A stretch of DNA of 64,000 nucleotides. It comes from a virus. Under the pieces are notes generated by a model that was not told where the DNA came from, did no database searches, and saw only the letters and a list, made by a program, of their open reading frames with translations. The DNA is taken from IMG/VR virus record IMGVR_UViG_3300045988_095776, positions 1 to 64,000 of that record, one strand, 5' to 3'. The translations under genes and the position numbers were made by a program. Below, piece after piece: positions 3,333 to 50,449 of the stretch (the first letter of the stretch is position 1; the number at the start of each line of letters is the position of its first letter).

Positions 3333-3388
3333 TGACGTTCAAATGAAGAGTTCCTTCCTATATAATGTAAGCATAAGGAGAAAACAAT

Positions 3389-31709: not shown

Positions 31710-31722
31710 TGACTTTGAATAA

Positions 31723-33764: not shown

Positions 33765-34134
33765 GTCTTTTTGGACGATCATTTTCTTTCGGAACTGACG
33801 TGAGTAAAAAGTTCAGCTGACTAATGTGCTGAATAAGTGTTGACATCTTTCCGTTAACATATCCTTTAAAAATCATAAGTACGGACTTCTCGTATCCGAT
33901 TTCAGTAACATGCATAGTAACTGAATGACCAAAATTGGTAAGTAGAAGTCCTACTTCATGTTCAGAGTCAAGCCCAGATTCAAAATCCTTGATATATTTG
34001 CAGAGAATCTCGAACTGAGTATCCGAATATGAATATGTCAATGGAACTGGCTCAATATTGTCAAGTTGTTCTGAAACTATTTTATTAATTGCATTGAAAT
34101 CGAAATTATTATACATAACATCTACCTCACTCAC
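33733..34134 (-). CDS. hypothetical protein co-transcribed with the repressor
   Basis: 133 aa, start overlaps the repressor stop; no motif recognised. Confidence 0.6.
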   Translation of the reverse strand: MSEVDVMYNNFDFNAINKIVSEQLDNIEPVPLTYSYSDTQFEILCKYIKDFESGLDSEHEVGLLLTNFGHSVTMHVTEIGYEKSVLMIFKGYVNGKMSTLIQHISQLNFLLTSVPKENDRPKRPIGFLPPTVE

Positions 34135-34471
34135 TTAAAAGATTAATCAATTCAATAACGTGTTTCTTTTTGGCATCGGACAGCCCGAAGTATTTCTTTA
34201 ATGCATCGGACAGTTCGGTGTCTTTTCTTATTTGCGCGATCAAATGTGCAGACTCATCGGAAAAATCTTCCTCCGGCTCTTTCCCTGTCATCAGATAATC
34301 TACAGATACATTGAAGAAATCTGCGATTTTTTGGAGTTTATCTTGTTTTGGAGTATACTTTCCCTTTTTCCAACTGGTTAATGTGGCAGTAGAAATATCA
34401 GTTCCTCTTGAAACCTGACTGGGAGTTACTTCTCTTTCTTTGCATAATCGTTCAAAGTTCTCATAATACAT
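34127..34471 (-). CDS. CI-like XRE-family repressor
   Basis: HTH_XRE (VTPSQVSRGTDISTATLTSWKKG); divergent from a cro-like gene across an operator-rich region. Confidence 0.8.
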   Translation of the reverse strand: MYYENFERLCKEREVTPSQVSRGTDISTATLTSWKKGKYTPKQDKLQKIADFFNVSVDYLMTGKEPEEDFSDESAHLIAQIRKDTELSDALKKYFGLSDAKKKHVIELINLLSE

Positions 34472-34495
34472 GGATTTTCTCCTTTGTGAAAAGAA

Positions 34496-34641
34496 CTAAG
34501 AAATCTTAATTTAATTATTGACATACTAAGAAAACTGTGCTATTCTTTAGAAGAACTAAGAAACCTTAGAAATATCGCAGTAAAAAATTAAGAAATCTAT
34601 ATAATTGTTTGTTGGTAGCTTCATTATATAAGAAATCTTAG
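34496..34641. promoter_or_regulatory. immunity-region operators: five copies of (C/T)TAAGAAAyCTTA-type half-palindromes with divergent promoters
   Basis: copies at 34496, 34526, 34556, 34588, 34628; TTGACA 34518-34523 + 17 nt + TATTCT. Confidence 0.65.
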
Positions 34642-34666
34642 TTACTGTCAAGAAAGGAGTGAGAAT

Positions 34667-34882
34667 TTGTTTAACTATATGGTTTTCGAAAAACTTTGCA
34701 AGGATGCAGGAGAAACTACTTATCAGGTTTGCAAAGATACGGGGATTAAATCTTCTACAATCGCTAATTGGAAAAAACATTCAGAAACAAATGGAAAAAA
34801 TGGATATGTTCCAAAAGCGGATAAGATTCTGTTAATCGCAAATCATTTTAATGTTCCTTTGGAAAAATTTATAGAGCCATAG
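34667..34882 (+). CDS. Cro-like XRE HTH protein (TTG start)
   Basis: AAAGGAG 8 nt before TTG 34667; TTYQVCKDTGIKSSTIANWKK HTH. Confidence 0.7.
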   Translation: MFNYMVFEKLCKDAGETTYQVCKDTGIKSSTIANWKKHSETNGKNGYVPKADKILLIANHFNVPLEKFIEP

Positions 34883-34893
34883 AAAGGAGAAGT

Positions 34894-35586
34894 ATGAACA
34901 AATTACAGATTTTCAATTCAGAGGAGTTCGGAGAAATTCGAACAGTGACTATTGACAATGAACCTTGGTTCGTTGGAATTGACGTAGCGAAATCATTAGG
35001 ATATGCAAATCCTAAGAATGCAGTTCCCAAACATGTGAGTGAAGAAGATAAGCTGGGTACCCAAATTGAGTACGCAGGTCAGAGACGTGAAGTGACGGTA
35101 ATCAACGAATCCGGATTATATGCATTAATATTCGGAAGTAAGCTCGATTCGGCTAAGAGATTCAAACATTGGGTAACGGCAGAGGTTCTCCCTTCCATCC
35201 GCAAGACGGGTTCATACCAGAAACCGATGACCGTAGCAGAACAGATTCAGTTACTGGCTCAGGGCAATCAAGACCATGAGGAGCGAATCGAGAAACTTGA
35301 GAACACAATGACCATTGATTACGGTCAGCAGAAGTACATCAGTGATCTGGTTTCCAAGGTGGTAATCGAGGTATTAGGTGGAAAGAAATCCAATGCTTAT
35401 GATGAGATTGGAAAGAAAGTATTTGCAGAATGCAACAGGGATGTAAAGACTTACTTCGATGTAAATGCCAGAAATAACATTCCCAAACTAAGGTATCAGG
35501 AAGCAGTGGAATACATCAAAGAGTGGACACCTTGTACCAATACCAAAATGATGATTCGTGACTGTAATGCTCAGATGACAATGTAG
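34894..35586 (+). CDS. antirepressor (Bro-N + KilAC/ORF6C-like)
   Basis: FNSEEFGEIRTVTIDNEPWFVGIDVAKSLGY is a typical Bro-N motif. Confidence 0.75.
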   Translation: MNKLQIFNSEEFGEIRTVTIDNEPWFVGIDVAKSLGYANPKNAVPKHVSEEDKLGTQIEYAGQRREVTVINESGLYALIFGSKLDSAKRFKHWVTAEVLPSIRKTGSYQKPMTVAEQIQLLAQGNQDHEERIEKLENTMTIDYGQQKYISDLVSKVVIEVLGGKKSNAYDEIGKKVFAECNRDVKTYFDVNARNNIPKLRYQEAVEYIKEWTPCTNTKMMIRDCNAQMTM

Positions 35587-35597
35587 GAGGTGGGAAT

Positions 35598-35873
35598 GTG
35601 AAAACACCTAAAATTGAAATCCGCCAGGTGGACGGCGAAAAAGGAATCTTCACAGAAATCCTTGTGGACGGTCATAAACTTGAGGGAGTAAGAAGCTTCG
35701 AACTGAAGCAGGAGGTTGGAAACTCAATACCGATACTTTCCGTTGATTTGAACGCTTTAGATTTATCAACAGATTTAAAGCTGTTACAGGTGAACCAGAA
35801 AGGTATCGGAGAAATCGAAAGCATTAAATTCAAGGGACAGGAAATGCCAGTTGAGTTTGGCACAAAAGAATAG
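35598..35873 (+). CDS. hypothetical protein (GTG start)
   Basis: RBS GGAGGTGGG. Confidence 0.55.
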   Translation: MKTPKIEIRQVDGEKGIFTEILVDGHKLEGVRSFELKQEVGNSIPILSVDLNALDLSTDLKLLQVNQKGIGEIESIKFKGQEMPVEFGTKE

Positions 35874-35901
35874 GCTCCCATATTTCAGAGAGCCGTGAGG
35901 A

Positions 35902-36093
35902 TTACTTACTGAGATTTTGCAGAATTGAACAATCGCTGGCACGATTACAACAACCTGTAAAACCGGCATATTTACATTTTAATCTTCCGTTAATAGATTT
36001 TGGACTCTTATCTTCTAAAGAAGAAACGGAAATTTGAGTAAATTCGACAAAATAATCCTTGTTCTGTTTTACACAAAAACCAGAATACACCAT
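35902..36093 (-). CDS. hypothetical Cys-rich small protein
   Basis: strong minus-strand RBS GGAAGGAGGTG 8 nt before the ATG. Confidence 0.55.
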   Translation of the reverse strand: MVYSGFCVKQNKDYFVEFTQISVSSLEDKSPKSINGRLKCKYAGFTGCCNRASDCSILQNLSK

Positions 36094-36429
36094 TAAACAA
36101 ACACCTCCTTCCCATAAGGAAAGTATACCACATAAAAATGGAGGTAACCAAAATTAAAAACTTCATATATGAATTATTTTTCAAGAAAAGATATTCGGTA
36201 ATTGACATAGTGAGCATTTGCGTTGGAATTGTTATCGGAATCCATATTTTCGATAGTCTTGTTTAAAAAAATGTTTAGGGATGGTTTCACAGGATTGATG
36301 AAAACCATCAATATGCGGTAATAATTGCAAAATTTTATCTTTTTCATTTTAATCGGCATGGCGGTGCCTGTAAGGACATTATAAGGAGATGCAGAATAAA
36401 ACTCAATATCATATCGGAGGGACATAAAA

Positions 36430-36603
36430 ATGGCAAAATCATTAATCCTGTCAGCTCTGATCGGCGGTATGTCACCGTACCTGCCGTTCTGGAGATTTGA
36501 CAGTGCATCACAGCCGGTTGCAGTAGCAATCGCAATATTCGCATTATCATTCGTGGTTATTTACCCGGATGAAATTAAAAGAATCGGAGGAAAAGAAAGA
36601 TGA
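36430..36603 (+). CDS. small membrane protein (57 aa)
   Basis: not in track; RBS GGAGGGA; two hydrophobic segments; ATGA overlap with the next ORF. Confidence 0.5.
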   Translation: MAKSLILSALIGGMSPYLPFWRFDSASQPVAVAIAIFALSFVVIYPDEIKRIGGKER

Positions 36604-36872
36604 TTGAGACAAAAATGGGGGAAATCACACTTAAAGGCAGTAAAGCAGAATTAATAGCTGACTTAGCTGTTATCGTTCGTGGAATCAAAGAAACCATTAT
36701 GGAAGATGGCAAAAAAACAGAGGAATCTGTGAAGCAGGAGATTGACGAAGCGGTCAAAATCGGGCTGATGAACGAAGAAGAATTTAAAACTATTCAAAAA
36801 GAAAAAATCAAAGAAGTTGTAAAAACATTATTTGGCGAATTACTTGGAGGGCTTTTCGATGAAGATAAATGA
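36600..36872 (+). CDS. hypothetical protein
   Basis: 90 aa, coupled start. Confidence 0.6.
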   Translation: MIETKMGEITLKGSKAELIADLAVIVRGIKETIMEDGKKTEESVKQEIDEAVKIGLMNEEEFKTIQKEKIKEVVKTLFGELLGGLFDEDK

Positions 36873-37155
36873 TTTTGATAAGACCGTAGATGAGTTGTAT
36901 CAGTTGTGCCGGAGAGTTCAGAAAGAAACCGGCAGAACGGTAGCATTTCATTTTGCAAACTACAAGATCGGATGCAGCTTGCACATCAACATATATAAGA
37001 AAGAATCCTTAAGAGAATTTGATATGTACAGCATTGCAGAGGGCGGTTATCAGCAGGAAGAGAATGTAAAGAAAGTAACTGACCATTTAAACAAAATTTT
37101 GATGGACAACAAATGTCCGTATTGTGAGGGAGATTGCAATGGAGAAAGAAAATAA
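36859..37155 (+). CDS. hypothetical protein with C-terminal CPYCEGDC
   Basis: start moved to ATG 36859 after TGGAGGG. Confidence 0.55.
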   Translation: MKINDFDKTVDELYQLCRRVQKETGRTVAFHFANYKIGCSLHINIYKKESLREFDMYSIAEGGYQQEENVKKVTDHLNKILMDNKCPYCEGDCNGERK

Positions 37156-37156
37156 G

Positions 37157-37312
37157 ATGGATTTCAGAGCAGAGACCGTAGCCGAAGAGTATGCAGAGCT
37201 GGTAGGCAGATTAAAGGCATTTGAAGCGTATCTCAGAACAGAGGAAGGCGCCTTAGTTGAGAAGAAAGTGTGCTTCGCAATGCTGGGCCTCTGCACCAAA
37301 GAAAGCGAATAA
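37157..37312 (+). CDS. hypothetical small protein
   Basis: start moved to ATG 37157 after GGAGAAAG. Confidence 0.45.
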   Translation: MDFRAETVAEEYAELVGRLKAFEAYLRTEEGALVEKKVCFAMLGLCTKESE

Positions 37313-37443
37313 AAGTTGGCTCCACAGGTACCGACATACCACATGGAGCCACGTATCTAACTTAATTTGGCTAAGTTAAATACAGGGCTAGTATAACACA
37401 CCTTCCTGTATTTATCAATAAATAATTTAGGAGGGCATTTTTT

Positions 37444-37638
37444 ATGTCAAAAACACACACATCCAACGAACAGAAACCACTTGCAAGCGAGATTATTTGT
37501 GATCTGGAAGCAGAAAACGCAAAACTCGAAGCAAGAAACAAGAAACTCAGTAACATTGTTTTAAAGCAGGCAGCAGTTCTTGTGGAGACATTATTGCTGT
37601 TGAATGAAGAAGGTGATTTAGGAAATGAAAATTCGTGA
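37444..37638 (+). CDS. hypothetical coiled-coil protein
   Basis: RBS AGGAGGG. Confidence 0.55.
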   Translation: MSKTHTSNEQKPLASEIICDLEAENAKLEARNKKLSNIVLKQAAVLVETLLLLNEEGDLGNENS

Positions 37639-38242
37639 CGAAAACCAGGTGCTTTTATCTGGTGATATCCCGGCGGGATTCGTATTCTCACATGAAGAAT
37701 ACGGCGGAACCAAGATGTACGAGGGAAGAATGACAATATTCAGAAAGAATGCATCCTATGACATTCTTCCAATTATTGTACCAGAATACATGATTTCAAG
37801 AGAAACAGAGTTGATTGCTAGTGTATATGGTGAAATGCGAAGTCGTACAGTCCGGGAAGATGGTAAAAAAAGCCTTGCGGCGTATGTAAGAGCAATGAAT
37901 ATTCAGTATCTTGAAAGACTAGAAGAACACGACGCAAACGAAGTTTATCTGACCGGTTACCTGATTAAAAAGCCGACAATAAAGATGATTGGCACAAACA
38001 ACGACAGGAAGCTGGCAAGAATACTTCTGGCAGTAAACAGAAAGAAGAAAGCCGGATATACCAGATCAGACGCAATCAGTTGTTTATGCTGGGAGGAAAA
38101 CGCAGATGCCGTAGAAAATCTGAAAAAGGGAACAAAAATCAAACTCCGTGGAAGATTCCAAAGCCGTGAACTGTGGTCTGATCAGAGTCAATCATGGGTA
38201 ACAGTGTTGGAGGTATCAGTAAAAAGATTGGAGATTTTGTAA
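37625..38242 (+). CDS. hypothetical protein, possible OB-fold ssDNA-binding protein
   Basis: 205 aa upstream of the ATPase and RecT genes; assignment by context only. Confidence 0.3.
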   Translation: MKIRDENQVLLSGDIPAGFVFSHEEYGGTKMYEGRMTIFRKNASYDILPIIVPEYMISRETELIASVYGEMRSRTVREDGKKSLAAYVRAMNIQYLERLEEHDANEVYLTGYLIKKPTIKMIGTNNDRKLARILLAVNRKKKAGYTRSDAISCLCWEENADAVENLKKGTKIKLRGRFQSRELWSDQSQSWVTVLEVSVKRLEIL

Positions 38243-38243
38243 T

Positions 38244-40271
38244 ATGAAGAAAATCGAAGTAAGAGAAATTAGATTGACCGATTTTAAAGGCCAGTCAGAA
38301 AAGAAAATAGAGTTCGGACACAGAACAGTCGTTTCCGGTAAGAACGGATGCGGAAAAACCACACTGGCAGACGCTTTTATGTGGGTGTTCTGTGACAAGG
38401 ACTACAGCTTAAAAAGTAACCCGGATATCAGACCGGATGATGGTAGAGAATGTCTCCCAAGAGTTGACATTGACCTTTTGATTGACGGAAAACCAGTAAG
38501 CGTTTCTAAGTACCAGAAACGCACAGAAAGCAAGCCAAAGGACGGAAAACCGGGCAAGGTTGCATTATCCAACAAGTACGAAATCAACGGCGTTCCGAAA
38601 GCTGAAAGAGATTTTAAAGCCGATTTGAAAGAACGCGGATTTGATTTTGATAATTTCCTGAGGCTGTCTCACATGGAAATCTTCACAGACTTGAAAGATG
38701 CAGATGCCAGAAAGATTCTGTTTTCCATGTCAGACGGTGCCGGGAAATCAGATTTAGAGATTGCCAAGACAGTTCCAGATTGTGCCGAGTTAGTACCACT
38801 TCTGGAAACCTACAAAGCAGACGAAATTAAGGCCATGAACAGTGCAACACTGAAAAAGGCAGAGGAACAGTTGAAAGCCATTCCAAACCAGATTATCGGT
38901 ATGGAGCAGGCGAAAGTCGATGCTGATACCGCCGAATTGGAATTGCAGAAGAATGCCTTGCAGGAACAGATTTCAGACCTCGAAAAGCAGATTGCGCAGG
39001 CAGGGAACGAGAAAGCTGGAGAGATTAAAGCGGAACTGGCAGGGTTAAGAACCAAACTGTTAGAGACGGAATCAAAGGCTAAAGCGAACTTGTTAGAGCA
39101 GAAATCATCGGTTTGCAATAAAGTTAGCAGTTTTGAATTAGACAGGAATATCAAAACATCAGAGTTGAACAGAAAGACTTCTACATTGGAAAGCCTGAGA
39201 GCGCAGAAAAAAGATCTTCTTGAAAAATTACAGAACGCCAGAACACAGTATCCCAAAATCAAAGACACAGAATGGGACAACACAGTTCTGGAAAGCATTA
39301 AATCCGAGGCATTCAAGGACGCAGATACCATTTGCCCGACTTGTGGTCATAGTCTTCCACCAGAGCAGATTGAGCAGTTAAAGAGCAGATTTGAACAGAA
39401 GAAGCAGGAAAGAATCAATCAGCAGTTAAAAGCCAAGGAAGAATGGGAACAGGACAAGAAACGCAAACTTGATGAAGTTATTCAGGTTGGAAACAAAGCG
39501 TCTGCCGATATGAAAGAAGCGCATAAGCAAGAAGAAACCCTCACATCTGAGATTTCCAAACTGACAGATGAATTAGAGCAGATCAAAACTTCTCTGGATG
39601 CAGAAAACAAAAATTTGGAATCCATACCGAAAGAGCCAGATTTCTCAGAAAACGCCGAATATCAGCAAATTCTTGTATCAATCAAAGAGAAAGAGCAGGA
39701 ACTTAATTCTCTGGACGATGGCGAAGAAGCAAAGAAACAGCTTTCAGAGCAGTTATCCGGCAAGAAACAGGAATTGGAAGCAGTTAATCAGAAAATCGGA
39801 GAAGCCAACAACAACGTCCGAATTGACGAGCAGATTGCGGAACTGGAAGCCAGCAGGACGGAATATTCTCAGAAGAAAGCTGATGCACAGATGATTCTGG
39901 ATGAACTGAAATCACTGAGTATGGCAAAAAATACAGCCCTTGAAGATACGGTGAACCAGTATTTTGACGGTGTTAAGGTGAAACTGTTCGATACGCAGAA
40001 AAACGGCGAAGTCGTAGATGCTTGCATCTGGTACGTGCAGGACAAGGATGGTAACTGGAAGAAATTAATCGGGAATGCCAATACAGCCCTGATGATGAAA
40101 GGCAAAATTGCCATCATGTACGGCTTACAGAAGTTTTACGGCGTGAGTTATCCAATATTCGTAGACTGCGCAGCAGAACTGGATAACATCAGTCTGGCAG
40201 GAATTAAGGCAGATGCGCAGTTAATTTTCTTGAAAGTTGCTGAATGGGATATGAAGGTAGCGGAGATTTGA
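38244..40271 (+). CDS. AAA/SMC-like ATPase with long coiled coil (SbcC/RecF-like)
   Basis: Walker A GKNGCGKTT; central coiled coil with CPTCGH zinc hook-like motif. Confidence 0.65.
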   Translation: MKKIEVREIRLTDFKGQSEKKIEFGHRTVVSGKNGCGKTTLADAFMWVFCDKDYSLKSNPDIRPDDGRECLPRVDIDLLIDGKPVSVSKYQKRTESKPKDGKPGKVALSNKYEINGVPKAERDFKADLKERGFDFDNFLRLSHMEIFTDLKDADARKILFSMSDGAGKSDLEIAKTVPDCAELVPLLETYKADEIKAMNSATLKKAEEQLKAIPNQIIGMEQAKVDADTAELELQKNALQEQISDLEKQIAQAGNEKAGEIKAELAGLRTKLLETESKAKANLLEQKSSVCNKVSSFELDRNIKTSELNRKTSTLESLRAQKKDLLEKLQNARTQYPKIKDTEWDNTVLESIKSEAFKDADTICPTCGHSLPPEQIEQLKSRFEQKKQERINQQLKAKEEWEQDKKRKLDEVIQVGNKASADMKEAHKQEETLTSEISKLTDELEQIKTSLDAENKNLESIPKEPDFSENAEYQQILVSIKEKEQELNSLDDGEEAKKQLSEQLSGKKQELEAVNQKIGEANNNVRIDEQIAELEASRTEYSQKKADAQMILDELKSLSMAKNTALEDTVNQYFDGVKVKLFDTQKNGEVVDACIWYVQDKDGNWKKLIGNANTALMMKGKIAIMYGLQKFYGVSYPIFVDCAAELDNISLAGIKADAQLIFLKVAEWDMKVAEI

Positions 40272-40619
40272 GAAAAGTGGAACAGCTAGGAACTTGTTTG
40301 GCGACAGCCTAGCTGCTCCACACAAAATATAGAGCAAACTATATTTGCTAATAGCATAACAGATAATTTTAGCTTAATCAAGCTACAGGTGATTTTGCAC
40401 CTGCAAAGTGAGGAACGTGTTAACTCACTAGAACCTATATAAATTTAATATTTGAGGTTTGACAAGCCTATGAATTTACATGGGTACAAAACTTCCATTC
40501 TTTTTTATCGCTAAACTCCGGTGGTTTGAAACCCTACAAAACAGCACAGGTACGAAACGATGCAATCACGCAAATAGCGTGTTAGCAAATATATAAAAAT
40601 ATAGAAAAGGAGAATTGTT

Positions 40620-41567
40620 ATGGCAAATAAAACACAGTTAGCAACAGCAGGAGAACAGCAGGCGGCAATCGTAATCAACAACTCATTCATTGATGGATTG
40701 GTCAAGCAGCTTGAAAAAAAATGTGAATATGGTCTTTCGTTCCCAAAAGACTACAACCTCAGTAATGCACTCATGGGGGCATATCTGACTCTGAAAGAGA
40801 CAAAAGACAGAAACAATAAGCCAATTCTGGAATCTTGCACAGCTACAAGCATTGCAAACAGCCTTATGAACATGGCAACGCTCGGACTTTCAGTTCAGAA
40901 AAAACAGGGTTATTTCATTGCCTATTCCGGTCAGTGCCAGTTCCAGAGGTCTTACTTCGGAAACATTACAATCGCCAGAAGATATGGAATGAAAGATATT
41001 CATGCTGAGATCATCTACGATGGCGACAAGTTCAAATATCATATCGAAGATGGAAACAAGGTTCTGAATTCTCATGAACAGGATTTTATGAACATTGACA
41101 ACGATAAGATTCTTGGGGCATATGCAGTAGTACTGATGGAAGATGGAACAAAACATCTAGAAGTAATGAACATAAAGCAGATCAAACAGGCTTGGTCACA
41201 GGGTTATGGTTACAAGGAAAACGGCAATGGAACACATCAGAAATTTACTGACCAGATGGCAAAGAAAACAGTTATCAATCGTGCATTAAAGCAGATTATC
41301 AATAGTCATGGTGATATTTTTATTCAGGAAGTCGAGGAAGCTACAGAAGAAATTCCAAAGCAGGACATTATTGAGCATGAAGTCGCTTATGAAATCGAGC
41401 AGAACGCCAATGCAGAAGAATTTATCCCAGATGAGCCAGTGGCAATCGAAGAGCAGCCGAAACAGCCAACAGTCGCAGAAGTTGTAAAGACTGCCGAGAA
41501 AGAACCAGTTCCGGCAGCAGGTAAAGAACCAGAAATTCCGGATTTTATGAAGCAGGAGGAGATGTGA
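40620..41567 (+). CDS. recT: RecT-family single-strand annealing recombinase
   Basis: 315 aa, RBS AAAGGAG; sequence pattern of the RecT family; recombination-module context. Confidence 0.65.
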   Translation: MANKTQLATAGEQQAAIVINNSFIDGLVKQLEKKCEYGLSFPKDYNLSNALMGAYLTLKETKDRNNKPILESCTATSIANSLMNMATLGLSVQKKQGYFIAYSGQCQFQRSYFGNITIARRYGMKDIHAEIIYDGDKFKYHIEDGNKVLNSHEQDFMNIDNDKILGAYAVVLMEDGTKHLEVMNIKQIKQAWSQGYGYKENGNGTHQKFTDQMAKKTVINRALKQIINSHGDIFIQEVEEATEEIPKQDIIEHEVAYEIEQNANAEEFIPDEPVAIEEQPKQPTVAEVVKTAEKEPVPAAGKEPEIPDFMKQEEM

Positions 41568-41568
41568 T

Positions 41569-42174
41569 ATGAACAATAAAGAAATTTTACAGAAAGCAAA
41601 GGAACTGGTTGAACTTCTGGAACAACAGGAAGAAACCGGAAAGGTTGAGTTGTCAACACTGAAACGAGGAGATGTGTTCCAGACTACAGGGAAACGCAAA
41701 TACAAAGTGTTGCAGCAGTATGGCGATACAACGAAAATTATTTCGCTTGATCTGGTGAAAGAAAATGTAGAGTTTGGTGATACCTCAGATTACAAAACAT
41801 CAAAGGTAAAGAAACTGTGTGACACTGAAATCCTGAAAGACTTCGAAGAAGAATTCGGGGCAGGAAATATCAAGACACACACAGCAGATATTATCACTGC
41901 GGATGGACAGAAAGTCGGAAATGTAAAATGCAAAATCCGTCCAATTACGTTTGATGAAGCACGAGAATACACAGATATTACACCGAACAATGATCTGAAC
42001 GACTGGTATTGGACGTTGTCGCCATGGTCGACAGAAGAGCACGGATGGAGTAGAAGCTTATCCGTTGTTTCCCCTTCGGGCTGTATCGGCGTCTACATTT
42101 ACAGCAACGGTTATGGTGTTCGCCCAGTTTGTATCTTAAAATCTAATATCTTTGTATCTAAGGTGGAGGAATGA
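41569..42174 (+). CDS. DGR target protein 1 (C-terminal variable C-type-lectin-like region)
   Basis: VR1 in the last ~35 codons; WYWTLSPWS...GVRPVCI. Confidence 0.85.
   Translation: MNNKEILQKAKELVELLEQQEETGKVELSTLKRGDVFQTTGKRKYKVLQQYGDTTKIISLDLVKENVEFGDTSDYKTSKVKKLCDTEILKDFEEEFGAGNIKTHTADIITADGQKVGNVKCKIRPITFDEAREYTDITPNNDLNDWYWTLSPWSTEEHGWSRSLSVVSPSGCIGVYIYSNGYGVRPVCILKSNIFVSKVEE
42062..42126 (+). repeat. DGR variable repeat VR1
   Basis: 65 nt; 11 differences from TR, all at TR adenines. Confidence 0.9.
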
Positions 42175-42176
42175 TT

Positions 42177-42776
42177 ATGAAGAAAAATCTGAAATATTTT
42201 GAGGATGAATTATCCAGATTAAGTAAAGAGTCCACAGAATTCAAGAAAAAGCACATCGGAAAGCCGGAAATCGGAAAAGCTATTAAGCTTGCTGGCATGG
42301 AATGGCTGATTCTGGATAATACAGAAAAAGGATATTTTGCCATTTTGAATGGATTTGATGGAAAAGAAAGAGCATTTGATTCAGATTCAAATAACTGGAT
42401 TTCAAGTAAACTGAGAAATGAGTTAAATACTCGTTTTCTTAAAAAAATTACTGACGAGTTTGGAGAAGATGCAGTTATTGAGTTTGATCGAGATTTGCTT
42501 TCTTTGGACGGTCAGACAGAATATGGACATTGTAAAGATAAGATTTCGATTTTGACGATGGACGAATACCGAAAATACAGAAAATTCCTTCCAAATATGG
42601 GTAAATGGTGGTGGTTGCTTACTCCATGGAGTACACCAGCAAATGATTACAGTAAAACACTTACCGTTGTTTCCCCTTCGGGCTATGTCAACCGCAACTT
42701 TTGCAGCAGCGGAAGTGGTGTTCGCCCAGTTTGTATCTTTTCTTCTTCAATCTTTGAATCGGGGAATGATGATTGA
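42177..42776 (+). CDS. DGR target protein 2 (paralog of target 1)
   Basis: VR2 at the 3' end; WWWLLTPWS...GVRPVCI; start moved to ATG 42177 (7 nt after GGAGG). Confidence 0.85.
   Translation: MKKNLKYFEDELSRLSKESTEFKKKHIGKPEIGKAIKLAGMEWLILDNTEKGYFAILNGFDGKERAFDSDSNNWISSKLRNELNTRFLKKITDEFGEDAVIEFDRDLLSLDGQTEYGHCKDKISILTMDEYRKYRKFLPNMGKWWWLLTPWSTPANDYSKTLTVVSPSGYVNRNFCSSGSGVRPVCIFSSSIFESGNDD
42664..42728 (+). repeat. DGR variable repeat VR2
   Basis: 65 nt; 10 differences from TR, all at TR adenines. Confidence 0.9.
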
Positions 42777-43147
42777 TGGCAAATGAAGATTTAAAGGTAA
42801 TAACAAAGGCCAAGCAGCTTGCAAAGCATACATTAATAGTTACGAGCAATGCCAGACGATACCCGAAAAAATATAGGTTTTCACTTGTAGATAAAATGCA
42901 AAATAAAGCATTGGAAATTTATGAGTCACTATTTGAAGCCAACCGAACTGATCTGAAAGATTATAAAGGAGAACGATTAGAACTTCAAACAAAAGCCATT
43001 ACTCATTGTGATGAGTTGATGTACTTTATAGAACTTTCATATGAATTGGGAATTATCAATTCCGGTGGAATGGAAGCATGGTCGCAAATGGTAAAAGATA
43101 TAAAGTATATGACTATTTCATGGAGAACAAAAGACAGAAAAAGATAA
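42776..43147 (+). CDS. avd: DGR accessory variability determinant (Avd, four-helix-bundle type)
   Basis: 123-aa basic helical protein between targets and TR; TGATG overlap with target 2. Confidence 0.75.
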   Translation: MANEDLKVITKAKQLAKHTLIVTSNARRYPKKYRFSLVDKMQNKALEIYESLFEANRTDLKDYKGERLELQTKAITHCDELMYFIELSYELGIINSGGMEAWSQMVKDIKYMTISWRTKDRKR

Positions 43148-43173
43148 TTTTCACAGGTTATGCACTGCGAATA

Positions 43174-43238
43174 CCGTTGTTTCCCCTTCGGGCTATATCA
43201 ACAACAACAATTACAACAACGAAAATGGTGTTCGCCCA
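43174..43238 (+). repeat. DGR template repeat (TR)
   Basis: ccgttgtttccccttcgggctatatcaacaacaacaattacaacaacgaaaatggtgttcgccca; 20 adenines, AAC/AAT-rich. Confidence 0.9.
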
Positions 43239-43342
43239 ACATGGATCACATGCAGACAGAGTAAGCGTAAAGCTGAAATCAGAAAAGATACAAGCAAATG
43301 CATAACCTTTCCGCAATGGACAAACATAAAGGAACAAAATAA

Positions 43343-44362
43343 ATGGATAAAGAAATTGTTGCAAATTTTGAGAATTTATATCGTTCTTACAAAAAGGTTA
43401 AGAGCGGTAAAAAATTTAATTCAGGTACTGCAAGATTTTCTAATTTGTCTCTTGAAGGCATTCATCTCTTGAAGGAACAATTAGAAAGTCAAACGTATAC
43501 CATAAATCCGTATAATAAATTTCAAATTCATGAGCCAAAAGAGCGAACGATAGAATCATGTGCATTTAAGGACAAAGTAGTGCAGAGATGCTTTTCTGAT
43601 TACATTCTGACGCCGAATCTTGAAAATATCCTGATTAAATGGAATACTGCCGGGCAGCAAGGAAAAGGGCAACATATGGCAATGGACGGGTTAAGAAATC
43701 AAATGTTGGATGTCTATAAAAGAAATGGAATGAATAGTTGGATTGTAAAATGTGATATTCACAAATACTTTTATTGCATAGACCATGAAATCATGAAAGA
43801 TGTTTTGGATTATTACTTTGATGATGATTTTACAGTCTGGTTGAACCATTTGTTTATCGATAGTACAGATAATCCGGGACTTCCATTAGGGAATCAGGTA
43901 AATCAGAAATACGCTCTTTTGTTGTTACATTCATTGGATCAAATGATAACGATTGAATTTGGAAATCCATATTACGGACGATACAACGATGATTTTTATG
44001 TGATTTGTAAAACGAAAGAAGATGCCAGAGAAATTCTCGAAGCAATCCGAATGATGATTGAAAGTCTTAGACTGGAATTAAACCCTAAATCACAAATTGT
44101 ACCATTTCGCATGGGCTTGTGTTACCTGGGCTTTCATCATTACGTAACTGATGAAGGAAAATACATCAGAAAATTGCGTGGTGATAAGAAAAGAAAAACA
44201 CAGAGAAAAATCCGAAGATGGGTACGGTCAGTGAATGACGGGAAGATGTCGATAGAAAAATTCCATGAAAAATACGGAGCATGCAAGAATCATATGCTTC
44301 ATGGAAATTGCACCAAACTATGTCATAGTATTGATTTAGAAATTGAAAGGAGAATGAAATGA
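43343..44362 (+). CDS. DGR reverse transcriptase
   Basis: GLPLGNQVNQ (DGR-specific motif) and YGRYNDDF (YxDD). Confidence 0.9.
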   Translation: MDKEIVANFENLYRSYKKVKSGKKFNSGTARFSNLSLEGIHLLKEQLESQTYTINPYNKFQIHEPKERTIESCAFKDKVVQRCFSDYILTPNLENILIKWNTAGQQGKGQHMAMDGLRNQMLDVYKRNGMNSWIVKCDIHKYFYCIDHEIMKDVLDYYFDDDFTVWLNHLFIDSTDNPGLPLGNQVNQKYALLLLHSLDQMITIEFGNPYYGRYNDDFYVICKTKEDAREILEAIRMMIESLRLELNPKSQIVPFRMGLCYLGFHHYVTDEGKYIRKLRGDKKRKTQRKIRRWVRSVNDGKMSIEKFHEKYGACKNHMLHGNCTKLCHSIDLEIERRMK

Positions 44363-44700
44363 GATTAGTAAGTCAGAATGGGGAATTTGATGTCCCTTAT
44401 GAAATCGCAGCATTAAGCAGAACTGGAAATATCATAAAAGCATATGTGCCAATGGTAGGTGAAAAAGGAACAATTATGGCTCGTTATTCGACAAATGAAA
44501 AAGCCCAAAAAGCTATGAAAGCGTTGCATAAAGTGTATGCAGGAATGTTTTTTGCGCAAAACGTTGAAATGAGCGATGATGATTACGAGGAATTTATAAA
44601 AATGGCTGCAAGAGGTTTTGATGATTCAAAAACCATGGTTAGCAGTCCAGATATGAAATTTGAACCAGCAAACATTGTATTCAGATTTCCAAAGGATTGA
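44359..44700 (+). CDS. hypothetical protein
   Basis: ATGA overlap with the RT gene. Confidence 0.6.
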   Translation: MRLVSQNGEFDVPYEIAALSRTGNIIKAYVPMVGEKGTIMARYSTNEKAQKAMKALHKVYAGMFFAQNVEMSDDDYEEFIKMAARGFDDSKTMVSSPDMKFEPANIVFRFPKD

Positions 44701-44712
44701 GAGGTATAAAAA

Positions 44713-45333
44713 ATGAGTTATAGCAGTTTATATGGAATTGATAAGGATTACAAAGGAGAGGTTATAGAATAGTTCGGAAATTCATGGCTGTTTGCACCTA
44801 TTGTGTGGGATGTCTTGACAGAAAAATATATCCCGCCAAGTAAATTAATAAGTCATGGATTTAAGAGAAATATCATTCATGATACTTCTCTTTGGAACGA
44901 AGTAAACAATGAAATTAACAATTGTGACAATGCGGTAGACAGGATTTGCTGGGAATTTTCTGGACAACAGGTTTTCTTCACAAAAGATAAGAGCTGTGTG
45001 GCAAATGCAATAAGAGACTTTATTAAGCAAAATAATAATTATTGCAGAGACACCGAAGATAATATCCCGGTGCTGGAAAGAGAGCACATCATTGAAAGAT
45101 TCGAAAAGATTGCTAGTGAAATAGAACTGTTATCGGAAGATACACCGTATTTTGTAATGAAGAACACTTCTGTTGATGACAGCGTAGAAAGATGGTTTGA
45201 AAAATACGATGATAAGCAAGATGAATATATAGAAACTGGTCTTAATCAGGTTGATGAATTTGTTACAGAATTTGTTGTGATCGAAGATGGGAAAATTGTG
45301 AATTTCATAAGCAATTTGGATTTTGAGTATTGA
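44713..45333 (+). pseudogene. hypothetical gene with in-frame TAG at 44770-44772
   Basis: RBS GAGAGG before ATG 44713; same frame continues through TAG into track ORF 44803-45333. Confidence 0.55.
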
Positions 45334-45348
45334 AAGTGAGGTGGCGAA

Positions 45349-46086
45349 ATGTTCATGAGAGTGATAAACACAGGCAGTCAACTCGGAAACTGCTATACGC
45401 TCAAGACCGAATCCGGCGAAATCTTGCTTTTGGATTGTGGATGCAAGTATTCAGAGATTTTAAAAGGAATCTCTTACAGAATATCGGATGTTTCTGGCTG
45501 TCTGCTGACCCATGGACATGGGGATCACCTGAAATCGTTCCAGAATCTTATGCAGTCCGGTATTCAGATTTACACCAATGACGAGACAGTTGAGAGTGTA
45601 AACACAATCTCTGGCGAGCTGATGATCGGCTTACCAGAAAAGAAATCGAAGGACATAGGTTCATTTCGGGTAACGCCTTTCTACGTCCCACACGACAAGA
45701 CACCAAACTTTGCATACCTGATATCTCACGAAGAATGTGGACGACTGATATATGCGACAGACTTCTCATATTTGCCGTTCACATTCAAGAACATGAGAAT
45801 AAATCACTTCCTTATAGAATGTAATCATCTTGACGAATCGCCGGAGCAGGATTCATTTAAATTTGAACACTCCATCCGGGGGCACAGCAGCTTATCTACT
45901 GTAAAAGAGATTATCCGAGTGAACAATACCGCTTCGCTCAGGACTATAACGCTGTGCCACCTGTCAGAGGGATGGGGGAACCCGGAAGTGATGCAGAAAG
46001 AGATACAGGACGTTGTCGGAGATGATGTTCTGGTGCAGATCGCAAGACCGGGACTGGATGTTGATTTGAATTTATGTCCGTTTTGA
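45349..46086 (+). CDS. MBL-fold metallo-hydrolase (recombination-associated nuclease-like)
   Basis: THGHGDH (HxHxDH) motif. Confidence 0.75.
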   Translation: MFMRVINTGSQLGNCYTLKTESGEILLLDCGCKYSEILKGISYRISDVSGCLLTHGHGDHLKSFQNLMQSGIQIYTNDETVESVNTISGELMIGLPEKKSKDIGSFRVTPFYVPHDKTPNFAYLISHEECGRLIYATDFSYLPFTFKNMRINHFLIECNHLDESPEQDSFKFEHSIRGHSSLSTVKEIIRVNNTASLRTITLCHLSEGWGNPEVMQKEIQDVVGDDVLVQIARPGLDVDLNLCPF

Positions 46087-46098
46087 AAGGAGAAAGAT

Positions 46099-46809
46099 AT
46101 GCCAAATCATGTAAGAAACATAATCAAAATGGAAGGAATAGAGAAACTTTCACTTATCAAAGTAAATGATGAGGGAGAAAAGTTCTTTGACTTTAATGAA
46201 CTTATTCCGATGCCAGAAAGTTTAAATATGAAATCTGGAACGATTGAAGAAATAGCGATTGAAGCAGCAATTAGAAAACTCGCCAAGAGAAGATACGATT
46301 TTCAAAGACCGTACGCAACGCCGGCAATGACCGATAAAAAATATTGGGAAAGAGTTTCAAACTGCAGAGAAAGTCAAGACGAGTTAATAGAACTGGGGTT
46401 GCAATATATAACAAACAAAATTAAATACGGAGCAACTACATGGTATGACTGGAATGTTGAAAACTGGGGCACAAAATGGAATTCATATGATAATGAAATC
46501 GAAAAGAATTGTGTGAAATTCAGTACAGCATGGTCAGACCCAACGCCTATAATTAGAAAACTTTCAGAAAAATATCCAGACGTAAAAGTTGAGCACTGGT
46601 GGGCTGATGAAGACATGGGGAATAATACGGGACACAGAATTTTGATTGCAGGAAAAGAAATACAAAATGTGTCTGCCGAATACGCAAACGAATCACAGGA
46701 TGCCTACGAATGTTATGTATTCTGCTGGGGAGAATCCAAGTGTCTTCATAAAGATGAGAGTGGTAATTGGGTACGCAATGAATGCGAAGAATGCGACGGG
46801 TGTGATTAA
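46099..46809 (+). CDS. DUF1281 / Api92-like protein
   Basis: N-terminal MPNHVRNIIKMEG pattern and W-rich core; C-terminal CEECDGCD. Confidence 0.4.
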   Translation: MPNHVRNIIKMEGIEKLSLIKVNDEGEKFFDFNELIPMPESLNMKSGTIEEIAIEAAIRKLAKRRYDFQRPYATPAMTDKKYWERVSNCRESQDELIELGLQYITNKIKYGATTWYDWNVENWGTKWNSYDNEIEKNCVKFSTAWSDPTPIIRKLSEKYPDVKVEHWWADEDMGNNTGHRILIAGKEIQNVSAEYANESQDAYECYVFCWGESKCLHKDESGNWVRNECEECDGCD

Positions 46810-46823
46810 TAAAAAAGCACCGA

Positions 46824-46976
46824 CTATTTATCGGCACTTTTTACAAAATCTTGGAGAACAGTAATGACCAGATTATTAAAACTCCTGTTCTCCTGCTTGG
46901 CAATTTGCTCAAGTTGTTCTTTAAGCTGTATCGGGAACGTGATGTTAGTTCTGGTCTTATCAGACTTGACGGTCAT
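46824..46976 (-). CDS. ribbon-helix-helix (CopG/Arc-like) protein, 50 aa
   Basis: not in track; RBS AGGGAGGG; TNITFPIQLKEQLEQIAKQENRSFNNLVITVLQDF. Confidence 0.65.
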   Translation of the reverse strand: MTVKSDKTRTNITFPIQLKEQLEQIAKQENRSFNNLVITVLQDFVKSADK

Positions 46977-47035
46977 GTGAAATCCCTCCCTTGTTTTTAG
47001 AACATTGTAGCATTTTTGCCTGTCGGTGTCAATTA

Positions 47036-47100
47036 GGTATCAAAGTGGTATCATTTTTATCTTGCAATATAGGTATCAAAATGGTATCATAATGGTATCA
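47036..47100. promoter_or_regulatory. five phased GGTATCA repeats (putative RHH operator array)
   Basis: copies start at 47036, 47047, 47072, 47083, 47094 (spacings 11, 25, 11, 11). Confidence 0.7.
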
Positions 47101-47114
47101 GAGATACACCGAGA

Positions 47115-47732
47115 ATGAATCGAGGTGATAAGTTTTTGAATAGTAACTATAAAAATTTTGTAAAAGCCAAGGCGATTGAAACTGAGAACCGTAAGAGATG
47201 GCTGAAAGTCGACCCGCATCTGAACGACAATCCTGGAATCTACATTTTGACAAGAATTGATGAAGATGGTTTTAAGTTTGGGTATGCAGGCCAGGCAAAG
47301 AAACTAATTACCAGATTATGTCAACATAGTGCAGGGCATCAACAACACATTGATCTTAGCTTGAAAAAACATGGATTATATTCAGAAAAAAATCCATATG
47401 GTTGGCGTGTAGTACATACTAATTGTCCAGAATCAGAACTTGACGAAAAGGAACAGTATTATATCAGATGGCTTGCAGATCAAGGGTATCAACTTAGAAA
47501 CAAGACTGGTGGTTCTCAGGGAGCAGGCAAGAAACAGATTGATGAGTACAGACCGGCAAAAGGTTATTATGATGGTTTAAATCAGGGAAAGAAATCACTC
47601 GCCAGAGAACTGTCGCACATCATAGATACACACTTGCAAGTTTCACTGAAACCAGAAAAGCAGAGCAATAAAGTATCAATCCGGGCTTTTGAAAAGTTTC
47701 AGAACTTGATTGATGAGAAAACATACGAATAA
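47115..47732 (+). CDS. GIY-YIG domain nuclease
   Basis: GIYILT...FGYAGQA..L..R...H...EKEQYYI...LRNKTGG. Confidence 0.65.
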   Translation: MNRGDKFLNSNYKNFVKAKAIETENRKRWLKVDPHLNDNPGIYILTRIDEDGFKFGYAGQAKKLITRLCQHSAGHQQHIDLSLKKHGLYSEKNPYGWRVVHTNCPESELDEKEQYYIRWLADQGYQLRNKTGGSQGAGKKQIDEYRPAKGYYDGLNQGKKSLARELSHIIDTHLQVSLKPEKQSNKVSIRAFEKFQNLIDEKTYE

Positions 47733-47789
47733 AAAATGAAAGGAGCTTGCCTTCATGTGACGTAAGGGTGCACCGGGCTTCTTTGAAAT

Positions 47790-48623
47790 ATGAAATTAAA
47801 ATGTGAAATATACAGAGACTCAATGCAAAATTACAAGAAATATGCAATTCCAAGAGCACAGCTTGTTATAGCTGATGTTCCGTATAATGTAGCGAATAAT
47901 TTTTACGGGAGCAACCCTATGTGGTATGTAGGTGGGGATAATAAAAATGGCGAAAGTAAACTAGCAGGAAAAGCTGCCTTTAATTCAGATTTTAATTTTA
48001 ACTTATATGAATACTTTCACTTTTGTTCAAGAATGTTAAAAAAAGAAGATACAACACCTGTGCCAAGAGGAAGAAGTAGCAATTCTCCATGCATGATTGT
48101 ATTTTGCTCGTTTGAACAAACACAAACATTGATTAAAGCTGCTGAAAAACATGGTTTTGTACATTATATCCCACTTGTTTTCATAAAAAATTACAGCCCT
48201 CAAGTATTAAAAGCGAATATGCGTGTAGTTGGAGCTACGGAGTACGCTTTATTGTTTTATAGAGACAGGCTTCCTAAGTTTAGGAACGGCGTTCAGACTG
48301 ATGAAAACGGAAAAACAATCAGAGGTACAGGACACATGGTTTTTAATTGGTTTGAATGGGAGAAAGATGGAAAAGATATTCCTAAAATTCATCCGGCACA
48401 AAAGCCGGTCAAACTTTTAAAAAGATTGATTGAAACGTTTACTGATCCCGGAGATGTAGTAATAGACCCATGTTGCGGAAGCGGGACAACGTTAAGAGCT
48501 GCACACGAAATAGGAAGAAATGCTTTCGGCTTTGAAATTGATAGAAATTTCTTTAAGAGGGCAAAAGAAGAAATGCTTGTTTTTGAGGAAAACAGTCAGA
48601 TAAGCATAGAAGATTTTTTATAA
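47790..48623 (+). CDS. DNA methyltransferase (N6-A/N4-C, beta class)
   Basis: ADVPYN (DPPY-like) precedes DPCCGSGTT (SAM-binding). Confidence 0.75.
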   Translation: MKLKCEIYRDSMQNYKKYAIPRAQLVIADVPYNVANNFYGSNPMWYVGGDNKNGESKLAGKAAFNSDFNFNLYEYFHFCSRMLKKEDTTPVPRGRSSNSPCMIVFCSFEQTQTLIKAAEKHGFVHYIPLVFIKNYSPQVLKANMRVVGATEYALLFYRDRLPKFRNGVQTDENGKTIRGTGHMVFNWFEWEKDGKDIPKIHPAQKPVKLLKRLIETFTDPGDVVIDPCCGSGTTLRAAHEIGRNAFGFEIDRNFFKRAKEEMLVFEENSQISIEDFL

Positions 48624-49568: not shown

Positions 49569-50449
49569 ATGGATTTAGAGCAAAAAGCAATTGAGAGAAT
49601 TCGACTTGCATCTGATCTCTCGTTGAAACATTATGGAAAGCCACTTGTGTGCACATATTCCGGTGGGAAAGATTCTGACGTGATGTTAGAACTCTTTCGT
49701 AGGGCGGGCATACCATTTGAGGCACACAATAGTCACCCACGGCAGATGCACCGCAAACTGTGCGGCACATACGAAATGTATTTAAAAGTTTGGAAGAAAA
49801 AGGAATTAAATGTGAAATAGAAATGCCGAAGTATAAAGGTGAACATATCACGATGTGGAAATTGATTCCATTAAAATTGATGCCACCAACAAGACAAGTT
49901 CGCTACTGCTGTCAAGTTCTTAAAGAAACAGGGTGCACAAATAGATATATTGGTACTGGTATAAGATGGGCTGAAAGCAGGCAGAGAAAAGAAAGAGAAG
50001 AATTTGAAAAAATTGGTGCGACAAAGGCAGCTAAAGAAAAATTCACATCAGTTATGCTAATGAACGACAATGACGCCAATCGCAGAATGAATGAGCTTTG
50101 TATGCAGAAAAACAAAATGGTTGTCAATCCAATCATTGACTGGAAAGATTCTGATATATGGGAATTTATCAATTCGGAGCATATAGAAACTTGTGAGTTG
50201 TACCAATGTGGATATGATCGTGTTGGCTGTATCGGCTGTCCTATGGCCGGGAAAAAGAGATATAAAGAATTTGCAGATTTTCCTAAGTACAAACAGTCTT
50301 ATATTAGAGCTTTTGAAAGAATGTTAGATGCTCGAAAAGAAAAAGAATTAGAAACTCAATGGGAGACCGGAGAGGATGTATTTAGGTGGTGGATGAACGA
50401 CGACAATTTAGATGGTCAGATGGAATTATCTGATTTTATTGAGTATTAA
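49569..50449 (+). pseudogene. PAPS-reductase-like (PP-loop ATPase) gene carrying a -1 frame break near 49734-49738
   Basis: SGGKDS PP-loop in frame A (49569-49820); family continues as TADAPQTVRHIRNVF... in frame B (to 50449); break at CACCCAC. Confidence 0.6.

Follow-up and report, generated by a model that had tools for sequence, protein, structure and literature searches.

The 64,000-nucleotide (nt) stretch of viral DNA under study (IMG/VR record IMGVR_UViG_3300045988_095776, positions 1 to 64,000; hereafter the window) carries, between positions 41,569 and 44,362, a gene for a reverse transcriptase (RT) together with three closely similar repeats. The question raised by this locus was whether it is a diversity-generating retroelement (DGR) at work, and what the proteins diversified by it would be used for. 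A previous reading of the letters alone, made without database searches (the sequence-only reading), had proposed a complete DGR in which one template repeat (TR) feeds two variable repeats (VR1 and VR2). The parts were all recovered, namely the RT, an Avd protein, a non-coding TR, and two target proteins of the DUF6273 family. The locus was read as a complete DGR with one TR and two VRs, which is very probably active.

TR, VR1, and VR2 were found exactly where the sequence-only reading had placed them (Table 1), as three 65-nt copies, and the TR is composed of 20 A, 19 C, 16 T, and 10 G. The number of mismatches to the TR was 11 for VR1 and 10 for VR2; the recount agreed with the earlier one in that 21 of 21 fell at TR adenines and none at C, G, or T. 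The hypergeometric probability of such adenine-only differences was 1.9e-7 for VR1, 1.0e-6 for VR2, and 1.9e-13 jointly. When all adenines of the TR were masked, the pattern occurred at 3 sites only in the 64-kb window and at none in 100 shuffles, and no further VR was found within the window when up to 3 mismatches were allowed.

The TR adenines lay mostly in AAC and AAT codons, as had been noted, and 18 of the 20 occupied codon positions 1 and 2 of the VR frame. A stop codon cannot be reached from any TR codon by adenine substitution. The coding capacity computed from the TR codons was approximately 5.5e10 protein variants per VR, and an 11-residue, putatively surface-exposed patch on each of the two paralogous, lectin-like targets would be diversified up to that number. 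Since a 1-nt indel just 5' of the TR varied between lineages in the alignment of related loci and breaks any conserved reading frame, the TR was taken to be non-coding.

To see how the repeats vary among relatives, IMG/VR was scanned with the RT. The scan returned 121 related places, 80 of which were kept (L001-L080; RT identity 80-100%), mostly from human-gut data sets and on contigs of ~77-81 kb. In the 136 unique TR/VR pairs from the related loci, adenine sites were mismatched in 1471 of 2709 cases (54%), compared to 25 of 2617 for C, 21 of 1425 for G, and 72 of 2225 for T (1-3%). That is, 1471 of the 1589 mismatches fell on TR adenines, and about half of the remainder were at the ragged 5' edge. 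Position by position, the adenines at 43194-43225 differed in 35-66% of the pairs and the non-adenines at 43177-43237 in 3% or fewer, the single exception being a TR lineage polymorphism; the last adenine, 43238, was unmutated, so that 19 vary. The changes were A>G in 54%, A>T in 40%, and A>C in 6% (818, 573, and 80, respectively). The check suggested by the sequence-only reading, a search for VR polymorphism limited to TR adenines in related genomes, thus gave in the 80 loci what a DGR predicts.

The window was also compared with its relatives across the whole cassette. Against L001, over 41505-45587 (4083 bp), 26 sites differed, 25 of them in the VRs, and all 25 of these were at TR-adenine positions. 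Four sets of loci (9 loci, 6 pairs) showed 0 differences over the 2.2-kb cassette scaffold outside the VRs; in three of these sets (5 pairs), 10-15 of the 34 positions compared per VR, which include the 19 varying adenines, were different. Since L031 and L033 differed in VR2 only and L076 and L077 in VR1 only, the two VRs are rewritten independently. Among 71 loci, 66 distinct cores were counted for VR1 and 67 for VR2, vs 20 for the TR. Identical cassettes thus carry different VRs, at adenine sites only, as expected from the earlier proposal of active or recently active mutagenic retrohoming, and the comparison of loci supports a DGR that may be active now or was so very recently.

The assignment of the RT gene as a DGR RT held. 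Its best match in the PDB was 8ub7, the bRT of phage BPP-1 (3e-25, vs 8e-12 for a group II intron RT), with the residue equivalent to R74 conserved and the catalytic motif aligned. The nearest annotated relatives were the DGR RTs of the gut phages nd12, nd4, FP_Brigit, Lelie, and FP_Toutatis (34-38% identity). The stretches GLPLGNQVNQ and YGRYNDDF had been called DGR-type; this stood in so far as GNQVNQ and YNDD align with IGSLTSQ and YMDD of bRT. However, the SQ of the DGR signature [LIV]GxxxSQ is not kept, and the deviation from GxxxSQ and YMDD is not shared by the RTs of nd12, nd4, Brigit, and Lelie, which retain SQ and YMDD. The catalytic YxDD is present, as YNDD. Motif 4 reads LGNQVNQ, with LGNQVNL in 22 of the 80 loci. 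In these 22 RTs (GLPLGNQVNL) Gln is replaced by Leu at the residue (window ~43913-43915) aligned with Q187 of bRT, the residue contacting the incoming dNTP. The NQ and NL lineages were indistinguishable in level and spectrum of adenine mutagenesis (chi-square P 0.92), and the motif deviation therefore does not look inactivating. Inactivating changes in the RT, on which the sequence-only reading had let its claim depend, were not found, the open reading frame (ORF) being intact in 80 of 80 related loci.

The protein at 42776-43147, described earlier as Avd-like and helical, matched phrog_3206 ('Avd protein of DGR') at 9e-24. The matches to NCBIfam DivGenRetAVD (NF033474; 3.6e-10) and to Pfam 23S_rRNA_IVP (PF05635; 9e-7) and bAvd (PF22296; 3e-3) were below the cut-offs, and a sequence search against the solved Avd structures in the PDB gave no match. 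In phage nd4, the ORF that takes the corresponding place in the DGR is ~36-37% identical to the protein of the window. The candidate Avd ORFs of nd12 and Lelie proved not homologous, so that among the ORFs compared only that of nd4 is. Calmodulin matches at E ~0.05 in the PDB sequence searches with Avd and target 2 were discarded as noise.

The 3' ends of the repeats were then inspected. After the common GGTGTTCGCCCA, the VRs continue with GTTTGTATC and the TR with ACATGGATC, and the TRs of other lineages read AACCTG[G/T/C]ATC. In the 136 pairs, TR and VR flanks showed fixed differences at 43239-43241 and at all positions from 43248 on. The earlier statement that identity stops abruptly after GGTGTTCGCCCA was therefore right as regards the fixed differences directly following it, and has to be amended in that a second small island, TG.ATC (43242-43247), is still common to the TR and VR flanks. 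By analogy, the arrangement resembles the pair of initiation-of-mutagenic-homing sites (IMH and IMH*) of BPP-1, which gives retrohoming its direction.

The spacer between TR and RT gene was nearly invariant in an alignment of 32 distinct sequences, even where the RT proteins had diverged to 80% amino acid (aa) identity. RNAalifold predicted a 13-bp duplex bracketing the TR (43155-43164 and 43166-43168 with 43299-43308 and 43294-43296). In the 32 sequences the duplex cells were paired in 97.8%, vs 19-47% when the partner was slid, and the 10-bp perfect complement within the duplex was equalled in 4 of 2000 shuffles. The predicted duplex matches the upstream/downstream 'cPRT Stop' duplex of other DGRs, which has an average of 13 bp and is known from 207 of them (bioRxiv 10.1101/2023.10.23.563531). 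In the small hairpin directly 3' of the TR, the pair 43241-43251 covaried, being A-U in 11 sequences and C-G in 21. A 9-bp tetraloop stem was not found in the DGR RNA.

An Rfam search of the window returned nothing at the gathering score. Below it, the only match in the cassette was that of the spacer (43247-43351) to the RT-2 motif (RF03077), with 23.9 bits (E 0.0095; gathering score 40), and L044 and L073 gave 24-26.1 bits. This match was lost when only 301 nt were searched, and was absent from nd4, nd12, Brigit, and Lelie. The spacer shares with RT-2 the block that is best conserved in that motif, AGACAxAGUA-stem-GAAAUCAG, and lies directly 5' of the RT gene; however, it does not form the model's outer stem, and its score lies under the gathering threshold. 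The original description of the RT motifs (Weinberg et al. 2017, PMC5737381) raised, as a speculation, that they are parts of DGRs or retrons. We regard the similarity as a lead, not as membership.

Table 1. Positions in the window of the DGR parts, the predicted RNA elements, and the ORF following the RT gene
Feature	Position	Strand	Remarks
Target gene 1	41569..42174	+	201-aa DUF6273 protein (C-type-lectin-like), without signal peptide; start 2 nt past the recT stop
VR1	42062..42126	+	residues 165-186 of target 1; 11 hypervariable codons
VR1 3' boundary, IMH-like	42115..42137	+	TR-common GGTGTTCGCCCA, then VR-specific GTTTGTATCTT
Target gene 2	42171..42776	+	201-aa DUF6273 protein; ORF overlaps target 1 stop and avd start
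VR2	42664..42728	+	residues 165-186 of target 2; hypervariable block visible in alignment
VR2 3' boundary, IMH-like	42717..42739	+	same sequence as the VR1 boundary
avd	42776..43147 (ORF also from 42773)	+	123 aa counted from the ATG used by orthologues
Long-range duplex, 5' arm (predicted)	43155..43168	+	AGGTTATGCA.TGC, just upstream of TR
TR	43174..43238	+	non-coding template repeat; 20 adenines; possible start 43172
TR 3' boundary, IMH*-like	43227..43249	+	GGTGTTCGCCCA, then TR-specific ACATGGATCAC
Spacer ('Sp' of DGR RNA)	43239..43342	+	104 nt between TR and RT gene
Small hairpin directly 3' of TR (predicted)	43240..43252	+	CATG-GATCA-CATG, 4 bp
Long-range duplex, 3' arm (predicted)	43294..43308	+	GCA..TGCATAACCT
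DGR RT	43343..44362	+	339 aa; RVT_1 9e-12; phrog_1423 1.5e-86
113-aa ORF	44359..44700	+	start overlaps RT stop (ATGA); phrog_25456 (unknown function) 1.5e-21

We propose that the early operon would be transcribed rightward through target 1, target 2, avd, TR, spacer, and RT, as the overlaps of the genes and the lack of terminators suggest. The RNA of TR and spacer would fold, the 13-bp duplex joining the region just upstream of the TR to that ~56-70 nt downstream of it, as judged from prediction and conservation, and a complex of RT and Avd would bind this RNA if the BPP-1 system is a guide. The RT would copy the TR into cDNA and misincorporate opposite adenines only, a step whose outcome is visible in the contrast of adenine and other sites given above. 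In either target gene, the cDNA would then take the place of the 65-nt VR homologous to it, at the 3' end of the gene. The direction is presumably set, as in BPP-1, by the fixed differences between the IMH-like and IMH*-like boundaries, and the two VRs are rewritten in separate events, as the pairs of loci show.

We hold with high confidence that the locus is a functional DGR in a temperate siphovirus-like gut phage. Several findings weigh against this. The variation in the predicted duplex consisted of wobble-pair changes only, with no double compensatory change; the stem following the TR has 4 bp vs the ~9 bp typical of Avd-binding stem-loops (bioRxiv 10.1101/2023.10.23.563531); visual inspection of the spacer for a sequence complementary to the 3' end of the TR showed no convincing TR:spacer priming duplex, and no priming adenosine was identified in the spacer. 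Other findings would suit a relic, that is, a DGR whose VRs were diversified in the past and which has lost retrohoming, so that the contigs differ by old polymorphism that recombination has spread. The RT departs from the usual motifs, with NQ or NL in place of SQ and YNDD in place of YMDD. The VRs have no hairpin or cruciform on their 3' side, as 81-nt DNA folds across each VR end did not exceed shuffles in stability (z +0.94 and +0.76). The cassettes of some relatives (L015, L023, L066, and L074) are damaged or rearranged, those of L066, L074, and L015 visibly broken, and not every copy is therefore necessarily active. Moreover, activity was deduced from contigs that are consensus assemblies, which give no direct view of turnover within a population. 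Nevertheless, a relic was considered very unlikely. Cassettes identical at all ~2200-4083 flanking positions differ at 10-15 VR sites, all of them TR adenines, and old polymorphism would have been accompanied by differences in the flanks too. The intact RT ORFs, the near invariance of the spacer RNA despite the divergence of the RTs, and the equal mutation level and spectrum of the NQ and NL lineages also argue against it.

We gave next to no credence to the explanation that no retroelement is involved. In that view, the repeats are ordinary paralogous sequence altered by some other process (for example gene conversion among the paralogues, editing by a deaminase, or noise of assembly), and the RT belongs to an unrelated defence system or group II intron. 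Among the NCBIfam families, the RT indeed matches those of group II introns and Drt, in each case far under the cut-off, and products of TR/VR recombination were seen in L023, L066, and L074. However, adenines were changed to G, T, and C, which is beyond what a deaminase makes. The non-coding copy never varies at its adenines and both coding copies vary only there, a pattern with a chance of ~2e-13 in the window. The RT has neither an intron RNA nor a maturase or endonuclease domain beside it, its best structural relative is bRT, and a bona fide Avd gene adjoins the TR.

The rearranged relatives deserve a description of their own. At the contig end of L023 (553-2242), the order was VR2, avd, a TR body with the VR1 3' flank, target 2, VR2, avd, and TR, with an unmutated TR copy in the VR1 position; either the assembly looped through the repeats, or TR and VR1 truly underwent recombination or duplication. 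In L066, the TR position (3831-3895) has flanks of the TR type and is occupied by a sequence identical to the adenine-poor VR2 of that locus. This suggests that information flowed back from a VR into the TR, by which the element would be disabled, or else that the contig is misassembled. In L015 (3831-3909), the 3' flank of the TR is of the VR type (AGTTTGTATC...) and two adenine sites of the TR are occupied by G; this TR may have been partly converted by a VR; the search pattern for RT motif B was also without a match in this locus. At ~3781-3895 of L074, the target 1 coding sequence directly precedes the TR and no VR or avd was found, which looks like a VR1-to-TR deletion by recombination between repeats, with target 1 fused to the template. 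In addition, in-frame indels of 3-6 nt relative to the TR were present in the AAC-repeat core of some VRs (L007, L017, L029, L052, L067, L075, and others), and in L007 the TR and both VRs were all 3 nt shorter. These indels may come from slippage on AAC repeats in reverse transcription or replication.

The targets themselves were characterized by profile and structure searches. Target 2 matched Pfam DUF6273 (PF19789) with 30.4 bits (E 4.1e-7), above the cut-off of 23.5 bits, and target 1 with 22.4 bits (E 1.2e-4), just under it; both matched phrog_9958 (2.3e-25 for target 1 and 6.7e-50 for target 2). The two are paralogues (40% identity over 135 aa, E 7e-32). An AlphaFold2 (AF2) model of target 2 from an 80-sequence alignment reached a predicted local distance difference test score (pLDDT) of 81 and a predicted template-modelling score (pTM) of 0.75; an alignment of 26 sequences had given a pLDDT of 37 and was discarded, and distant subfamilies were added by two further homologue searches. 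In the model, a charged N-terminal helix of ~22 residues (residues 3-22) is followed by an alpha/beta domain, and the variable residues 172-182 lie on a predicted strand-loop-strand. The only strong Foldseek match in the PDB was the DUF6273 domain of 9qa6 (E 1.1e-5), an IgA protease of Thomasclavelia ramosa in which this domain is N-terminal (PMC12402451); classical C-type lectins matched weakly (E 0.25-1.5). Among predicted viral structures, DUF6273 proteins (4e-7) and DUF1566 proteins (2e-3) were matched. A sequence search of target 2 against the PDB gave nothing meaningful. In the protein database, more than 4300 clusters at 90% identity were counted for target 2 alone. Some small DUF6273 homologues (P0130, P0181, and P0302) are annotated as fusions to DUF3310, Dam methylase, esterase, and other domains; such proteins may truly be fused, or gene calling may have joined neighbouring genes of dense early operons.

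The window is that of a temperate siphovirus-like phage from the human gut. Its late genes occupy 1-30.6 kb and encode, among others, a major head protein, a tape measure, a 1637-aa tail protein, and an endolysin. A CI-type repressor gene (34127-34471, minus strand) faces a Bro/ORF6C antirepressor. The early genes form a rightward string. Those for SSB, an SbcC-like ATPase, and RecT precede the cassette (target 1, target 2, avd, TR, and RT), and beyond it come genes for an MBL hydrolase and a GIY-YIG protein, followed by those for a methylase, a replisome organiser, and a DnaC-like loader, with that of a large serine recombinase last. Only 2 nt separate the recT stop from the target 1 start, target 1, target 2, and avd have overlapping ORFs, and no terminator-like site was found on the plus strand in 34221-48000; the targets are apparently co-transcribed with the SSB and RecT genes as one gene string of the early operon. 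From the surrounding gene order and spacing, the entire cassette was assigned to the early recombination operon, ~12 kb from the tail and lysis genes. The 113-aa ORF following the RT gene had no Pfam or NCBIfam match, and L082 has a 116-aa ORF at the same place. The host was searched for in the GTDB species-representative genomes with an RT protein pattern and a conserved-spacer DNA pattern, and no prophage was found in them. DNA similarity to catalogued phages amounted to only three short matches (70-76% identity), to unannotated faecal contigs.

Some further features of the phage were noted outside the cassette. The tape-measure gene is seemingly split into ORFs at 16769-18343 and 18574-21753, whose matches are to the same PHROG profiles and follow on from each other (in phrog_28918, positions 1-196 for the first ORF and 198-914 for the second), and which are separated by a 230-nt ORF-free gap. 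As a possible intron the gap had no Rfam match and its fold was not unusual; it could be a small intron, a boundary between two real genes, or a sequencing break. The window contains three recombinases, an unusual number for one phage: two tyrosine recombinases (10556-11551 and 28411-29187), in or at the end of the structural region, and the large serine recombinase (57518-59188) at the end of the early region. Just past the endolysin, a minus-strand cluster (30726-32898) includes genes for a response regulator of the LytTR type and for a 391-aa protein carrying Big_2 Ig-like domains. The GC skew reverses at this cluster, which has the look of a moron or of a module for lysogenic conversion. 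In the early region, a PAPS-reductase-domain protein encoded downstream of the DNA methylase (49760-50449) may have a role in DNA modification.

The targets were taken to be diversified binding proteins, with a putative ligand-binding function. We lean slightly towards virion-borne receptor-binding or adhesion proteins similar to Mtd of BPP-1, in which case the DGR would serve host-range switching or adherence to mucus or cells. This agrees with the C-type-lectin-like fold and with the C-terminal VR, as in Mtd, with a partial PHROG match to 'Hoc-like head decoration', and with Foldseek matches that include proteins labelled receptor-binding protein and tail-collar fibre. It is also the published view of small targets, hypothesized for tgt2 of nd4 and nd12 (PMC10743442) and for the small targets of Lelie and CP11 (PMC11792537), where Mtd-like receptor binding is proposed and the early-gene placement is not discussed. 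However, the targets lie downstream of the CI/antirepressor switch and ~12 kb past the tail and lysis genes, and are apparently co-transcribed with SSB, the SbcC-like ATPase, and RecT, with no plus-strand terminator in the stretch searched. They have no signal peptide and none of the beta-prism/beta-sandwich attachment domains of the Mtd type. Moreover, their small homologues in Brigit, nd4, nd12, Toutatis, Lelie, and six metagenomic contigs (L092-L097), which represent at least 5 lineages, were found in early, replication, recombination, or anti-restriction neighbourhoods and never by tail genes; the neighbours included exonucleases, RecT, ERF, Gam, SSB, Lar, Dam, other methylases, and replication initiators.

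We therefore speculated that the targets might instead be early, cytoplasmic, non-structural binders made together with the SSB and RecT gene products, possibly neutralising or recruiting variable host factors such as defence proteins. This suggestion is a tentative one, thought less likely than not, and its basis, the gene neighbourhood and the missing signal peptide and virion-attachment domain, is circumstantial. If it were true, the gut-phage DGRs with small DUF6273 targets would diversify an intracellular host-takeover or counter-defence function and not the host range, and the accepted role of phage DGRs would be widened beyond host-range switching.

As a DGR, the element holds nothing new in principle. 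Its value lies in an unusually clean natural dataset of ~80 or more related cassettes, with per-site adenine mutagenesis, independent rewriting of two VRs, and two natural RT motif variants (NQ and NL) that show no visible difference in outcome. Furthermore, the cassette is compact (2.8 kb), and its 65-nt TR, nearly invariant spacer, and predicted TR-bracketing duplex could suit engineering or comparative work on DGR RNA.

Compared with BPP-1 (mtd-avd-TR-brt), the locus has the same gene order of target, avd, TR, and RT, an Avd protein, and adenine-only mutagenesis. The VR is likewise C-terminal in a C-type-lectin-like fold, the TR codons are rich in AAC and AAT with no stops possible, and fixed TR/VR differences follow a common GC-rich 3' segment, in the manner of IMH vs IMH*. 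Unlike BPP-1, which has one target, the phage of the window has two, of 201 aa each and without the beta-prism/beta-sandwich domains of Mtd, and Mtd was absent among the 50 matches listed in the Foldseek PDB search of target 2. The VR and TR measure 65 nt (~32 nt of them mutable) compared to 134 nt in BPP-1, and the RT has NQ and YNDD in place of the SQ and YMDD of bRT. The VR hairpin or cruciform is a feature of BPP-1 that is not universal among DGRs, and is not present here. The cassette lies in an early recombination operon, whereas that of BPP-1 lies at the end of the tail genes.

Closer relatives have been described from gut phages, in which DGRs are common and active (e.g. bioRxiv 10.64898/2026.01.26.701711). 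In these described relatives, the avd-TR-RT unit sits in the structural region by a large Ig-domain target ('Hoc-like head decoration' in Brigit, 'tentaclin' in nd4 and nd12). Phages nd4 and nd12 (Baykov et al. 2023, PMC10743442) share with the window one TR with two VRs, DUF6273, C-lec-like targets, and the closest annotated RTs (38% and 35% identity, respectively). Their small 'tgt2' proteins, encoded among early and replication genes, are homologous to both targets of the window (29-32% identity). However, their cassette (avd-TR-RT-tentaclin) is in the structural and lysis region with tgt2 remote from it, and their main target is the large Ig-domain tentaclin with a VR near its 5' end. The window has no tentaclin, and its two targets are small tandem paralogues directly 5' of avd, all in the early operon. 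The Faecalibacterium phages Lelie, CP11, Toutatis, and Brigit (PMC11792537, bioRxiv 10.1101/2024.10.15.618418) also have two-target systems, with RTs 34-35% identical to that of the window. Their small DUF6273 targets have the VR at the C-terminus and are encoded in the early region, as seen for gp24 of Toutatis and for gp06 of Brigit, the latter by exonucleases and RecT. These phages differ in having a large Hoc-like or Ig target beside the RT and the small target more than 15 kb away, and in that their small targets have a C-terminal extension, which those of the window lack, having the charged N-terminal helix instead.

Since two-target DUF6273 DGRs of gut phages have thus been published (PMC10743442, PMC11792537, bioRxiv 10.1101/2024.10.15.618418), the present DGR is not new in kind. 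It is set apart, as mildly unusual, by tandem small paralogous targets 5' of avd, a cassette placed in the early operon, an RT with NQ or NL and YNDD, a TR of 65 nt bracketed by the predicted 13-bp duplex, and VRs free of a hairpin.

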